Shown here in pieces: positions 46,291 through 50,813 of a DNA stretch of 64,000 bases. The position numbers were made by a program, and so were the translations under genes. Origin of the DNA: Escherichia coli (lineage in GTDB: Bacteria; Pseudomonadota; Gammaproteobacteria; Enterobacterales; Enterobacteriaceae). How positions within the stretch are numbered: the stretch's first letter is position 1; each line of letters starts with the position of its first letter. The DNA is taken from NCBI RefSeq assembly GCF_029227855.1, contig NZ_CP074356.1, one strand, 5' to 3'. The notes beneath the pieces are model-generated. The model saw only the letters and a list, made by a program, of their open reading frames with translations. It made no database searches and was not told where the DNA came from.

Positions 46291-48696
46291 ATGGCAGCAG
46301 TAAAAATCTCAGGTGTGCTGAAAGATGGTGCGGGAAAACCAATACAGAACTGCACTATTCAACTGAAGGCAAAGCGTAACAGCACCACGGTACTGGTGAA
46401 CACGGTGGCTTCTGAAAATCCGGATGAAGCCGGACGTTACAGCATGGATGTTGAGTATGGCCAGTACAGCGTCACCCTGCTGGTTGAAGGTTTTCCGCCT
46501 TCACATGCCGGGACCATTACCGTCTATGAAGGCTCCAGACCAGGTACGCTGAATGATTTTCTCGGTGCCATGACGGAAGATGATGTCATGCCGGAGGCAT
46601 TGCGTCGTTTTGAGGCAATGGTGGAAGAAGTGGCACGCAACGCCGAAGCCGCCTCTCAGAGCGCAGCGGCGGCAAAGAAATCCGAAACTGCAGCGGCATC
46701 ATCAAAGAACGCGGCGAAAACCTCAGAAACGAATGCAGCTAATAGTGCACAGGCGGCAGCGACCTCAAAGACTGCATCGGCAAACTCCGCGACAGCAGCC
46801 AAAAAATCAGAAACCAACGCGAAAAATAGCGAGACAGCCGCAAAGACGAGCGAAACCAACGCAAAGTCCAGCCAGACGGCAGCGAAAACCAGCGAAACGA
46901 ATGCCAAAGCCAGTGAAACTGCGGCAAAAAACAGCCAGGTTGCAGCAGCCCAAAGCGAGAGCGCGGCAGCCGGTTCTGCGACTTCAGCAGCTGGATCAGC
47001 AACTGCTGCGGCTAACAGCCAGAAAGCTGCGAAGACGAGTGAAACTAACGCAAAGTCCAGCCAGACGGCAGCGAAGACCAGCGAAACGAATGCCAAAGCC
47101 AGTGAAACTGCGGCGAAAAGCAGTCAGGATGCAGCGGCCCAAAGCGAGAGTGCCGCAGCCAGTTCTGCAAGCGCGGCGGCTGCTTCTGCCACTGCATCAG
47201 CCAACAGTCAAAAAGCAGCAAAAACCAGTGAAACCAACGCAAAGGCGAGCGAGACTGCGGCGGCGAACTCGGCGCAAGCATCGGCAGCAAGCCAGACAGC
47301 AGCTAAAGCAAGTGAAGACGCAGCCAGAGAGTATGCAAGCCAGGCAGCGGAGCCGTATAAATATGTCTTACAGCCACTGCCTGATGTGTGGATACCGTTT
47401 AACGATTCACTGGATATGATTACGGGCTTTTCGCCATCATATAAAAAAATTGTTATTGGCGACGATGAAATAACAATGCCTGGCGACAAGATTGTAAAGT
47501 TTAAACGCGCATCGAAAGCAACTTACATTAATAAATCTGGTGTGCTGACAGAGGCTGCCATTGACGAGCCACGATTTGAACGTGATGGCCTGCTTATTGA
47601 GGGGCAAAGAACTAACCTGCTAATCAATTCAACAAATCCGACTAAATGGAACAAGTCGTCAAATATGATCTTAAGTGCATCAGGTGTAGATGATTTCGGA
47701 TTCCAGTACGCAAAATTTACATTAAAACCAGAAATGGTAGGGCAAATTTCAGCGATTAACATAGTAACCGTTTCCGGCAGTAAAGGTTTTGATGTAACAG
47801 GCGGAGAAAAGTATGTAACCATATCATGCAGGGTGCAAAGTGGCACTCCAAATTTAAGATGCCGATTACGATTTGAAAACTATGATGGTTCTACCTACAC
47901 ATTCTTAGGTGACGCTTACTTAAATACGACAGATTTATCTATTGATAAGACGGGTGGTGCCGCTAATCGCATTACTGCAAGGGCTGTTAAAGATGAAGCA
48001 AGCAAATGGATCTTTTTTGAGGCGACAATTAAGGCACTTGATACAGAAAATATGATAGGTGGAATGGTTCAGTATGCCCCGGCAAAAGGAGTGGGCACTG
48101 GCGCGGATGATTATATTTATATTGCGACCCCTCAAGTTGAAGGTGGGGCGTGCGCTTCATCGTTTATTATAACAGGCGCATCCCCTGTAACACGCGCCAG
48201 CGATATTGTAACGGTCCCCATTTCTCTAAATTGGTGCAATCCCGCTATTAGTTCATTAGCAGAAGTTAATACCAATTGGGATGAATCGCCAAACAAAGAA
48301 GGTAGCGCACGTATTCTTAATATTTCCACTACGGGAGATACAACTGAAATTGCAGATGAAAGTTATATGTATTTGGGGTATACATCTTTGGGAGCACGCG
48401 CAATCATTACAAATGGTAAAGGCACTAAAATAGAATATAAAAGCGTTATAGAACGACCAGAGAGAAAAAGCATTATCGGCTTTAGATTCACAGAAAGTCG
48501 AGAATTGTGTGTTGTGGTTAACGGTAATATTGGTGCTAAGGTGGTTTCTCCTTATAAAAAACACAAATATACAGGAGGCTTCATTAATATTGGTGGTCAA
48601 TCATCATCCGGCAACCGTCACCTATTTGGACACGTTCGAAATCTGCGTATTTGGCACAAGGCATTGACTGATGCTCAGATGGGGGAGTCAATCTAA
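46291..48696 (+). CDS. stf: side tail fibre protein (Stf-like) with repeat-rich shaft and distinct C-terminal receptor-binding region
   Basis: N-terminus MAAVKISGVLKDGAGKPIQNCTIQLKAKRNSTT... matches conserved Stf N-terminal domain; Ala/Lys/Thr/Ser/Glu-rich repeats; AT-richer C-terminal third. Confidence 0.85.
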   Translation: MAAVKISGVLKDGAGKPIQNCTIQLKAKRNSTTVLVNTVASENPDEAGRYSMDVEYGQYSVTLLVEGFPPSHAGTITVYEGSRPGTLNDFLGAMTEDDVMPEALRRFEAMVEEVARNAEAASQSAAAAKKSETAAASSKNAAKTSETNAANSAQAAATSKTASANSATAAKKSETNAKNSETAAKTSETNAKSSQTAAKTSETNAKASETAAKNSQVAAAQSESAAAGSATSAAGSATAAANSQKAAKTSETNAKSSQTAAKTSETNAKASETAAKSSQDAAAQSESAAASSASAAAASATASANSQKAAKTSETNAKASETAAANSAQASAASQTAAKASEDAAREYASQAAEPYKYVLQPLPDVWIPFNDSLDMITGFSPSYKKIVIGDDEITMPGDKIVKFKRASKATYINKSGVLTEAAIDEPRFERDGLLIEGQRTNLLINSTNPTKWNKSSNMILSASGVDDFGFQYAKFTLKPEMVGQISAINIVTVSGSKGFDVTGGEKYVTISCRVQSGTPNLRCRLRFENYDGSTYTFLGDAYLNTTDLSIDKTGGAANRITARAVKDEASKWIFFEATIKALDTENMIGGMVQYAPAKGVGTGADDYIYIATPQVEGGACASSFIITGASPVTRASDIVTVPISLNWCNPAISSLAEVNTNWDESPNKEGSARILNISTTGDTTEIADESYMYLGYTSLGARAIITNGKGTKIEYKSVIERPERKSIIGFRFTESRELCVVVNGNIGAKVVSPYKKHKYTGGFINIGGQSSSGNRHLFGHVRNLRIWHKALTDAQMGESI
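46650..47300 (+). repeat. tandem and near-identical direct repeats inside stf (about 110-bp copies at 46861-46975 and 47050-47164, 189-bp period)
   Basis: Repeated blocks gcaaagtccagccagacggcagcgaa(a/g)accagcgaaacgaatgccaaagccagtgaaactgcggc...; many spurious ORFs on both strands. Confidence 0.75.
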
Positions 48697-48977
48697 TGAA
48701 AGATTTAACACTCAAATTTGCCGACAGGGCCGATTTTTCGGCCTTTATGGGAAGTATTGGCTATTATAATGACGAGTCGATGCAGGATGATATTCTGATT
48801 GATGTGATAGGTAACGTGTACAAAGAAACCGGAGAGCTGACTGAAGATGGCGAACCGGTATGTGTTAAGGAAGATGGATATTTTGTAAACGTGCGCATCA
48901 TTAAGGATACGCAAATATCGTCATTATTCGATGAATACGCGGTTGCTGTTGAGCATCAACTTCGTGGCTGGATGTGA
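48696..48977 (+). CDS. hypothetical protein downstream of stf
   Basis: 93-aa acidic ORF, ATG overlaps stf stop. Confidence 0.5.
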   Translation: MKDLTLKFADRADFSAFMGSIGYYNDESMQDDILIDVIGNVYKETGELTEDGEPVCVKEDGYFVNVRIIKDTQISSLFDEYAVAVEHQLRGWM

Positions 48978-48986
48978 GGTAGAGAA

Positions 48987-49691
48987 ATGGCTACATCAAC
49001 AGTAATTCCGGGAGACATCACCACGCTGAAGGGAGATGTTAGTAAAGCAAAGGAAGATATTTCCTCTATTAACGGAAAAGTATCAACGCTTCAGACTGAT
49101 ATGGCCAGTGCAAAGCAGGATATCAGCACCAGATACACAAAAACTGAAGTTGATAATAAGCTGAAAAACAAAGTGGAAGTGAACGATCTGGAAAGTGGTC
49201 GTTATGGCGGAGATTTTTACCCGCTGACTGGCCGTGAAGCGTTTTATTTATGGGGATTGGGCACAACTACAGCGGCGGCAAATCTTTATCTTAATCCTGA
49301 CCCTGCAATTTCGTCTGTGCTGCGGTCAACATCGTCTATCCGCTATAAACATTCAGTAGAGACGATAGATTCAGAGCACGCCGATCTCATTTTCAGGATG
49401 CGCCCTGTGTGGTACAGGTCGCAATGCGAAAATGACAGGCGTGACTGGGGATTCTATGGATTGATTGCCGAGGAAGTTGGAGAAATTGCCCCTCAGTTTG
49501 TTCACTGGCGACCAGCCAACGAAGATGATGCACCGGAAACCATTTCCAGCAATGGCCTTGTTGCCGAAGGTGTAATGTACGAACGTCTGGTTGTTCCACT
49601 GATTCACCATATCCAGAAGCTGACTGAAAGAGTTGATGAACTTGAGTCAGAATTAAAGTTGTTATCCGTTTCCCGAAGCGATATCGGATAA
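48987..49691 (+). CDS. tail-fibre-associated protein with N-terminal coiled coil and C-terminal intramolecular-chaperone (peptidase S74-like) region
   Basis: C-terminal segment IRYKHSVETIDSEHADLIFRMRPVWYRSQCENDRRDWGFYGLIAEEVGEIAPQFV resembles the autoproteolytic chaperone domain of tailspike/fibre proteins (pattern recall only). Confidence 0.55.
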   Translation: MATSTVIPGDITTLKGDVSKAKEDISSINGKVSTLQTDMASAKQDISTRYTKTEVDNKLKNKVEVNDLESGRYGGDFYPLTGREAFYLWGLGTTTAAANLYLNPDPAISSVLRSTSSIRYKHSVETIDSEHADLIFRMRPVWYRSQCENDRRDWGFYGLIAEEVGEIAPQFVHWRPANEDDAPETISSNGLVAEGVMYERLVVPLIHHIQKLTERVDELESELKLLSVSRSDIG

Positions 49692-49701
49692 AGGAGGCGT
49701 A

Positions 49702-49995: not shown

Positions 49996-50005
49996 AAAAA
50001 GGTGA

Positions 50006-50125
50006 GCTGTATATGCAACGGAGGAAGAAACCTCGTTGCGGGAAGCCTTGAAGAAGTATCGGGTGTTGCTGAACCGTGTTGATACGTCAACTGCACAGGA
50101 TATTGAATGGCCAGCACTGCCGTAG
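50006..50125 (+). pseudogene. 3' remnant of a tail fibre assembly gene (tfa)
   Basis: Frame without start codon encoding ...[36 protein letters not shown], resembling the remembered conserved Tfa C-terminus. Confidence 0.55.
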
Positions 50126-50222
50126 GGTAAAACATATAAATTCTATAATTAGATGTATCTTTCCATTTACGGCAAGGAAGGGGGCTTGGAAGACGTAAGG
50201 CATCTCACACCGAGATTATTTT

Positions 50223-50813
50223 TTATATGTCAGGTGTCTGAAGTTTTGCTTTGGCTCTTAAAATGGTTTGCCGCGAGGTTTTGAATTCCCGGGCAATGGC
50301 ACTTATACTTACACCTGACTTAATCCGTTCGAATACCACCTGTTTCTGTTCTTCATTTAACACAGGTGGTCGACCAAAACGTTTCCCTGCGCCCCGGGCT
50401 CTTACTATCCCGGAATGAGTGCGTTCAAGTAAAAGGTCTCGTTCAAATTCAGCGACTGCTGAAATTACTTGCATCATCATTTTTCCTGTTGGACTGGTCA
50501 GGTCAATGCCCCCCAATGCTAAGCAATGCACTCTGATACCTGTTTCGGTCAGTTGTTCCACTGTTTTCCTGATATCCATTGCATTACAACCAAGGCGATC
50601 CAGTTTTGTCACAATCAATTGATCACCACATTTCAGGCGAGCAAGCAACCGGTTAAAACCAGGACGCTCACTGGTTGCTGCTGAGCCGCTAATGTGTTCT
50701 TCGATTATTTGCTGAGGTTTGATTTTAAAACCTGCACTTTCGATTTCCCGGCGTTGATTTTCGGTGGTCTGATCCAGCGTTGATATCCGACAGTAAGCAA
50801 AAATTCGAGACAT
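50223..50813 (-). CDS. pin: Pin-type serine DNA invertase
   Basis: 196-aa product [29 protein letters not shown]... with catalytic Ser motif and C-terminal HTH. Confidence 0.9.

Follow-up and report, generated by a model that had tools for sequence, protein, structure and literature searches.

A lambda-like Escherichia coli prophage, followed by host genes, makes up the content of a 64,000-nucleotide stretch of contig NZ_CP074356.1, referred to here as the window. The distal part of its tail-fibre region departs from the stf-tfa order: the fibre gene stf is followed by three open reading frames (ORFs) for proteins of 93, 234 and 97 amino acids (aa), by a remnant of the 3' end of tfa and, on the opposite strand, by the recombinase gene pinQ. 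We consider it probable that this arrangement is a common alternative tail-fibre cassette of a lambda-like prophage at the Qin site, bounded by a scar of tfa and lying next to a PinQ that has no local switch. The replacement of a Tfa-dependent cassette by a Tfa-independent one that bears a chaperone domain is a known, ordinary mosaic exchange and not a broken invertible switch. The cassette families have been catalogued and PinQ was characterised in 2025, and in both respects the region is already known; since ~5% of complete E. coli genomes, and sequenced phages too, contain the same DNA, it has little value as a discovery. Its value lies in annotation: the 93-aa and 234-aa proteins can be recorded as Tfa-independent fibre components, the tfa fragment as a scar, and pinQ as a gene that does not flank a local switch.

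The stf gene spans 46291-48696 on the plus strand (801 aa from the start chosen by PGAP; the ORF opens at 46261) and is followed by the 93-aa ORF at 48696-48977 (family phrog_1361), the 234-aa ORF at 48987-49691 (a Peptidase_S74 protein), the 97-aa ORF at 49702-49995 (phrog_1443) and the tfa 3' remnant at 50006-50125 (39 in-frame codons, no start), every gene from stf to the remnant being on the same strand. The pinQ gene (50223-50813, minus strand) is intact, encodes 196 aa and is convergent with the fibre genes. A 100%-identical copy of the region is present in E. coli CFSAN061763, and its NCBI PGAP gene calls agree with those in the window: the Tfa fragment is listed as a tail fiber assembly protein pseudogene with its N-terminus missing, and the recombinase is named pinQ. 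A preliminary description of this DNA had given the same gene order, which both the ORFs and the annotated copy show to be accurate, and all five of the elements that it listed were found where it had placed them.

Boundaries and distribution of the cassette

The right-hand boundary of the cassette is a recombination joint at 50013/50014. Homology to the Qin prophage of E. coli K-12 starts at 50014, 111 nt before the end of tfaQ, and from there to 53000, where the compared stretch ends in ydfI, the DNA identity to K-12 Qin is 98.2%. The sequence across the joint, GGTGAGCTGTATAT on the left and GCAACGGAGG on the right, is the same in three loci of the IMG/VR database (L009, L010 and L016) as in the window, and the identity of the joint in independent loci points to one ancestral event that later spread. 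The 39-aa fragment matches the C-terminal ends of Tfa families in the PHROG database (E = 1e-9 to 4e-14) and is the equivalent of TfaQ residues ~155-191; a TGA codon stands directly upstream of it, and the start codon and the N-terminal domain are absent. The preliminary description had recognised a tfa remnant here, and these matches, together with the pseudogene call by PGAP, bear it out, just as the breakpoints relative to K-12 Qin substantiate its proposal that the distal fibre region had been replaced in comparison with stf-tfa. In all 25 IMG/VR loci with PinQ (25/25), either a full tfaQ or a remnant of it (Tfa residues 156-191, 147-191 or 161-191) adjoins pinQ, and the remnant classes that were examined co-occur with fibres bearing an S74 domain. 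Since phage PhiR49_1, which has no pinQ, keeps the tfa remnant directly after the gene for the 97-aa protein, the remnant travels with the cassette. Read from its sequence, the remnant is a recombination scar, and it may serve as the right-hand homology arm for further swaps.

To the right of the joint lies a block (50014-52159) that is constant in this type of prophage: the tfa 3' end and pinQ are followed by ydfK, by ynfT and by the attachment junction, which falls in ydfJ. K-12 Qin has this order too, and in each of the 25 IMG/VR loci a tfa 3' end adjoins pinQ. The order of ydfK and ynfT, between pinQ and ydfJ, was read from the window; ydfJ itself is a host gene, truncated at its 5' end (52148-53431) and annotated by PGAP as a pseudogene, and the prophage junction within it is the same insertion site as that of K-12 Qin and Tritos. 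Positions 49701-52159 of the window are 99.35% identical to Tritos, with the same order of 97-aa gene, tfa scrap, convergent pin gene, ydfK homologue and attachment end, which identifies the element as a Tritos-like phage at the Qin site. K-12 Qin shares with the window the site, a 99% identical PinQ and a convergent pinQ without an adjacent invertible segment, but it has a full tfaQ and a truncated stfQ where the window has the cassette of stf and the 93-aa, 234-aa and 97-aa genes. The Rac prophage (stfR-tfaR-pinR-ynaE) has the same arrangement as the Qin right end.

The 3.4-kb stretch at 48000-51400 is found as a collinear copy in 281 of 5,426 complete E. coli genomes, in many of them at 99.9-100% identity. 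Among sequenced phages, IdasGreatGrand (88% identity) and PhiR49_1 (84%) carry the four-gene cassette, with DNA identities of 84-94%, and both differ from the window in having no pinQ. Part of the cassette is present in Tritos (OV696610), HannyBb and PhiR63_1; Tritos differs from the window in encoding a second fibre protein of 346 aa and in the distal domain of its Stf. T1-like phages have a trio of fibre gene, 93-aa gene and a gene for a ~231-aa protein, with no 97-aa gene, and in phage 21, where stf and the genes for the 93-aa and 97-aa proteins are present, it is the S74 protein that is missing. The families to which the cassette belongs are PHROGs 1419, 1361 and 3299.

The shared breakpoints suggest an ancestor with stf-tfa followed by convergent pinQ, as K-12 Qin still has. 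A Tfa-independent cassette would then have entered by recombination, displacing the variable portion of stf and nearly all of tfa, of which only the last ~37 codons stayed behind.

Proteins of the fibre cassette

Stf consists of a conserved N-terminal tail-attachment domain, a repeat shaft rich in Ala, Ser and Thr, and a variable, lectin-like C-terminal half. Family phrog_1419 covers it from end to end (E = 0), residues 3-132 match Pfam phage_tail_N (E = 5.5e-67), and residues 435-636 match NCBIfam GTA_spike_fiber ('head spike fiber', of glycan-binding type); a Pfam search found no S74 domain in Stf. The ~450 N-terminal codons of stf are common to relatives. The part of the gene that is most divergent among close relatives, ~47616-48589, corresponds to ~1 kb of the C-terminal domain and has conserved DNA on both sides, as is expected of a receptor-contacting surface. 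Conservation returns (88.7% identity to Tritos) ~100 nt before the end of stf and extends through the 93-aa gene to ~60 nt into the 234-aa gene.

The start of the 93-aa ORF overlaps the stf stop codon by one nucleotide (TAATG), and on this layout the gene is translationally coupled to stf. Its family, phrog_1361, is small (48 representatives at 50% clustering). In phage 21, the T1-like phage KarlJaspers, Dhillonvirus, T5-like phages and others, virulent ones included, homologues of the 93-aa protein are encoded directly 3' of the gene for a lateral or side fibre. Since the gene follows the fibre gene across such phages, the 93-aa protein is a fibre-linked factor and not cargo. Searches of Pfam, NCBIfam and PADLOC gave no match. 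The predicted structure is confident, with a predicted local distance difference test (pLDDT) score of 89.8; as its fold has no informative structural neighbour, it is on linkage that the 93-aa protein is probably an assembly factor or adaptor.

The preliminary description had noted that the 234-aa protein is coiled-coil with a C-terminus resembling S74 chaperones, and the latter is now supported by a Pfam match, a pair of catalytic-type residues and the predicted fold. Residues 116-172 match Peptidase_S74 (PF13884; E = 2.2e-5), and none of 28 homologues, whose identity is otherwise as low as 21%, departs from Ser116 or Lys121; the ~45 residues upstream of Ser116 are conserved as well. In the AlphaFold2 model the chaperone part has a pLDDT of 85-95, and the C-terminal half folds like solved S74 chaperone domains, the Foldseek neighbours being MyRF ICA (7dc3; E = 2e-5, prob 1.0), the GA-1 neck appendage (3gud) and endosialidase (3gw6). 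Over its whole length the protein aligns to positions 1147-1384, within the last 238 positions, of the 1385-position fibre profile phrog_3299. The first ~25 residues are common to the 346-aa 'tail fiber protein' of Tritos, which occupies the same slot and is otherwise unrelated. An IMG/VR locus (L015, 863-4642, minus strand) encodes a single Stf of 1259 aa with a C-terminal Peptidase_S74 domain (E = 6e-12), and residues 927-1236 of this Stf correspond to the Tritos 346-aa protein minus its N-terminal anchor; the distal module thus occurs both fused and split. The 234-aa ORF is not a gene fragment: it is intact and has its own ribosome-binding site, and proteins of 231-234 aa are encoded in many phages.

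The N-terminus in common with Tritos, the fusion in L015 and the alignment to the C-terminal end of phrog_3299 favour a distal piece of the fibre over a free chaperone. The protein looks like a short distal fibre, with an anchor of ~25-30 aa, a coiled coil, a small tip and a C-terminal intramolecular chaperone domain. Its N-terminal ~25-30 residues would probably dock onto the fibre, and the chaperone domain would trimerise the 234-aa protein and then cut itself off; the invariant residues and the modelled fold suggest that this self-cleavage probably takes place at Ser116, using Lys121.

Multi-protein lateral fibres of a comparable kind are known, a further example being the branched LtfA/LtfB fibres of the T5-like phage DT57C. 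In the T1-like and T5-like phages of the BASEL collection, lateral fibres are made of one or several proteins, and distal units bearing a chaperone are attached to proximal fibres (BASEL papers). Their highly mosaic loci encode a proximal fibre and a separate distal protein with N-terminal attachment, a variable part and a C-terminal self-cleaving chaperone, and the same layout is predicted for the window. The arrangement proposed for the window differs in having a distal protein of only 234 aa, which is very short, and a Stf with a large lectin-like domain of its own. The S74 domains of endosialidase, GA-1 and MyRF resemble that of the 234-aa protein in the Ser-Lys pair, the fold and the Pfam match, but here the domain, with its predicted cleavage, sits on a very short coiled-coil protein and not on a large spike or fibre.

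PinQ and the search for a local switch

The recombinase in the window is 99% identical to K-12 PinQ and 38% identical to PinE (Pin) of e14. Gin, Hin, Cin and Pin share roughly 60-70% identity, and PinQ at 38% to PinE falls outside that close relationship. Among proteins of solved structure the closest to PinQ is Gin (E = 3e-29), by a small margin over gamma-delta resolvase (E = 2e-22), and the alignment to both extends as far as residue ~185; Y7, R9, S11 and R73 correspond to Y6, R8, S10 and R68. PinQ has the catalytic Ser, Tyr and Arg and the C-terminal helix-turn-helix of a small serine recombinase.

In every one of the 25 IMG/VR loci (85-100% PinQ identity), pinQ converges with the fibre genes and faces the tfa 3' end; at least four different fibre cassettes stand to its left. 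No invertible segment belonging to PinQ was found in K-12 Qin, in Tritos or in any of these loci, and therefore the segment-less state is the norm for the PinQ lineage and is not due to the cassette. An invertible segment near pinQ is present in one locus type only (L020; IMGVR_UViG_2744054976_000007, 1644-6037), in which a canonical 3-kb invertible fibre segment, with sites TTATCTAAAACCTCGGTTTACAGGAA and TTCCTGTAAACCGAGGTATTCGATAA and with fibre-tip and tfa genes facing each other, lies beside the same block of tfa remnant and pinQ. The Din-type invertase of L020 itself, in canonical orientation, is truncated to ~70 aa and adjoins the tfa remnant and the intact pinQ, so that PinQ may be the only intact recombinase left beside this switch. 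Another locus (L029) has the same tfa remnant and truncated Din-type invertase, and a pair of crossover sites was not found there.

Crossover sites in the window were sought with a half-site weight matrix built from four real Din-type sites, namely the L020 pair and the e14 pair. The e14 sites are TTCTCCCAAACCAAGGTTTTCGAGAG and TTCTCCCAAACCAACGTTTATGAAAA, and the matrix scores the real sites, as positive controls, at 27-30 bits. No Din-type site was found in the 64-kb window, where the maximum is 14.9 bits against 13.4 +/- 2.2 for random sequence; between 45 and 52 kb the best score is only 8.7 bits. Searches for gix/pix-like sites with core patterns and with the published e14 repeats returned chance-level counts. 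The 26-bp site search and the comparison with e14 that the preliminary description had proposed thus reveal nothing above chance across the 64 kb, and they confirm its observation that an inverted pair of crossover sites is absent. The flanks of pinQ are uniformly conserved, so conservation cannot single out a site near the gene.

Nor has the region been seen inverted. With 48696-50140 artificially flipped as the query, an inverted isomer was found in 0 of the 5,426 complete E. coli genomes, against the 281 collinear copies. A search for Tfa or Stf genes on the opposite strand found none in the relatives L008, L009, L010 and L016, although the same method detects such genes in L020. The absence of oppositely oriented fibre genes, which the preliminary description had also remarked upon, therefore holds for the window and its relatives alike. 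In the invertible systems of Mu (G/Gin), P1 (C/Cin) and e14 (P/PinE), a small serine recombinase gene adjoins the tail-fibre genes, as it does in the window; unlike these, the window lacks 26-bp sites, alternative fibre genes and isomers, its recombinase has Cys in place of Arg71, and pinQ has the opposite orientation, with its 3' end toward the fibre genes.

Any role of PinQ as a recombinase would have to be in trans. Over-produced PinQ has been reported to invert the 1,797-bp P segment of e14 in trans (Kirigo et al. 2025; PMC12529663), giving rise to a chimeric StfE2 that blocks T2 adsorption, and the BLAST surveys of the same study found inversions in e14 only and none in Qin or rac (PMC12529663).

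Several observations tell against the reading proposed here. PinQ has a cysteine (Cys76; codon at 50586-50588, minus strand) at the position of Tn3 Arg71, in the motif LDRLGC where Gin, PinE and gamma-delta resolvase have LDRLGR, and thus does not possess the full set of catalytic arginines; K-12 PinQ and the Tritos protein have the same cysteine, as do the variants at 85% identity. Mutation of R71 in Tn3 resolvase abolishes recombination and slows cleavage ~1000-fold (PMC2794168). Deletion of pinE locks the P segment in one orientation (PMC12529663), which suggests that native PinQ activity is weak or uncertain. In one genome with an identical copy of the region, icd is uninterrupted and there is no e14; the published target of PinQ is therefore missing there. 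As for the cassette, the presence of the 234-aa protein in virions and its self-cleavage are predictions made from sequence, its predicted mature part is only ~115 aa, residues 62-114 of the model are of low confidence and were modelled as a monomer, and the annotators of BASEL named the T1-like homologues 'putative lateral tail fiber chaperone'. The model of the 93-aa protein has no informative structural neighbours. A scan for promoters and terminators gave nothing above expectation and does not support a separate expression of the 97-aa gene.

The alternative that survives best concerns the 234-aa S74 protein, which could be a stand-alone chaperone that acts in trans, trimerising the C-terminus of Stf, and that has replaced Tfa. 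The position of its gene in the tfa slot, the lack of an S74 domain in Stf itself, the small mature part left after the predicted cleavage and the labels of the T1-like homologues (which also include 'chaperone of endosialidase') speak for such a role. We nevertheless regard it as unlikely. An invariant Ser-Lys pair preceded by ~45 conserved residues, as seen here, is the hallmark of a chaperone acting on its own chain, and the N-terminal ~25 residues in common with the 346-aa fibre protein resemble a docking peptide. In L015 the distal module of the 346-aa protein is fused to a long fibre, and the 234-aa protein aligns to the end of phrog_3299. In phage 21, moreover, a Stf of this type is accompanied by the 93-aa protein and by no S74 protein, so such a Stf does not need one.

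A different view of the recombinase holds that PinQ and PinR form a distinct lineage, fixed at right ends of the Qin/Rac type, with Cys for Arg and no sites of their own, whose members have a weak or conditional activity in trans at fibre switches belonging to other prophages (for example that of L020) or serve as DNA-binding regulators. We consider this doubtful, and more so than the free chaperone. If true, it would revise the simple 'invertase' picture of the 2025 report.

The preliminary description had supposed that the recombinase was a Pin that may have lost its invertible segment, that is, an e14- or Mu-type Pin whose fibre segment was destroyed by the remodelling. A recombinase gene beside fibre genes, a tfa fragment that attests to lost sequence and, in L020, the canonical invertible segment that adjoins this tfa remnant and pinQ are what such a history would leave. 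It is very improbable all the same. PinQ is too distant from PinE, and a segment-less, convergent pinQ also accompanies an intact stf-tfaQ in K-12 Qin and many loci, which means that the absence of a segment predates the cassette and is independent of it. The segment in L020, for its part, has its own truncated Din-type invertase, separate from pinQ. The supposed loss is not borne out.

We give just as little credence to a local action of PinQ on non-canonical sites, by which it would, for example, invert or excise a segment with the cassette or pinQ. PinQ is divergent, and its sites might accordingly differ from gix/pix; the intergenic stretch between pinQ and ydfK, upstream of pinQ, contains a perfect 14-bp palindrome, CAAAATCGATTTTG (50951-50964), that occurs only once in the window. 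This palindrome has no partner in the window, the sole other match (at 44186) having three mismatches, which is chance level, and it may be an operator. The best inverted repeats near pinQ and across the 64 kb are of ~22-27 nt at 77-80% complementarity and are not meaningful, and both the 281 collinear against 0 inverted copies and the published survey of Qin and rac (PMC12529663) argue against local rearrangement.

The 97-aa membrane protein and the region upstream of stf

The 97-aa protein matches phrog_1443 (E = 3.5e-59) and has two or three hydrophobic segments and hydrophobic ends. The central loop is very highly conserved in its family (REHTQAEYRWIE..G.GKR..MPWWGGF), which comprises 583 homologues and carries no profile annotation. 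Pfam and NCBIfam gave no match to the protein, and neither did PADLOC or known defence families. Among sequenced phages, close copies were found in temperate lambdoids only, phage 21 included. A homologue in Aeromonas sits among housekeeping genes, in a non-phage chromosomal context, and a family member in Comamonas is encoded after a J-like gene. The 97-aa gene is the only credible cargo of the three and is probably accessory; its product may have a function expressed in the lysogen or one in exclusion. This protein and the Cys-for-Arg replacement in PinQ are the sole points of the region that could repay experiments.

It is extremely unlikely that the three genes next to stf are one and all unrelated cargo (morons): Pfam and NCBIfam place neither the 93-aa nor the 97-aa protein in a family and the 97-aa family also occurs outside phages, but the 93-aa gene is coupled to the fibre gene and follows the fibre type in lambdoid, T1-like, T5-like and other phages, virulent ones among them, and the 234-aa protein carries fibre-type domains. 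Of the three 'new cargo genes' in the preliminary description, the 97-aa gene alone keeps that designation, while the 93-aa and 234-aa genes belong to a widespread fibre cassette represented in PHROGs and in lambdoid and T1-like phages.

Upstream of stf, gene J ends at 44848 and lom occupies 44916-45515. Between lom and stf, and outside the cassette, lies an insertion of IS200C type (45572-46273, plus strand; tnpA at 45661-46170), the end of which is 18 nt from the annotated stf start. CFSAN061763, whose region is identical in other respects, lacks the insertion, and the blastn alignment to it is interrupted at 45571/46274. The arrangement lom-IS200C-stf is present in 153 other genomes, among them CFT073, and elsewhere it bears the PGAP label 'IS200/IS605-like element IS200C family transposase'.

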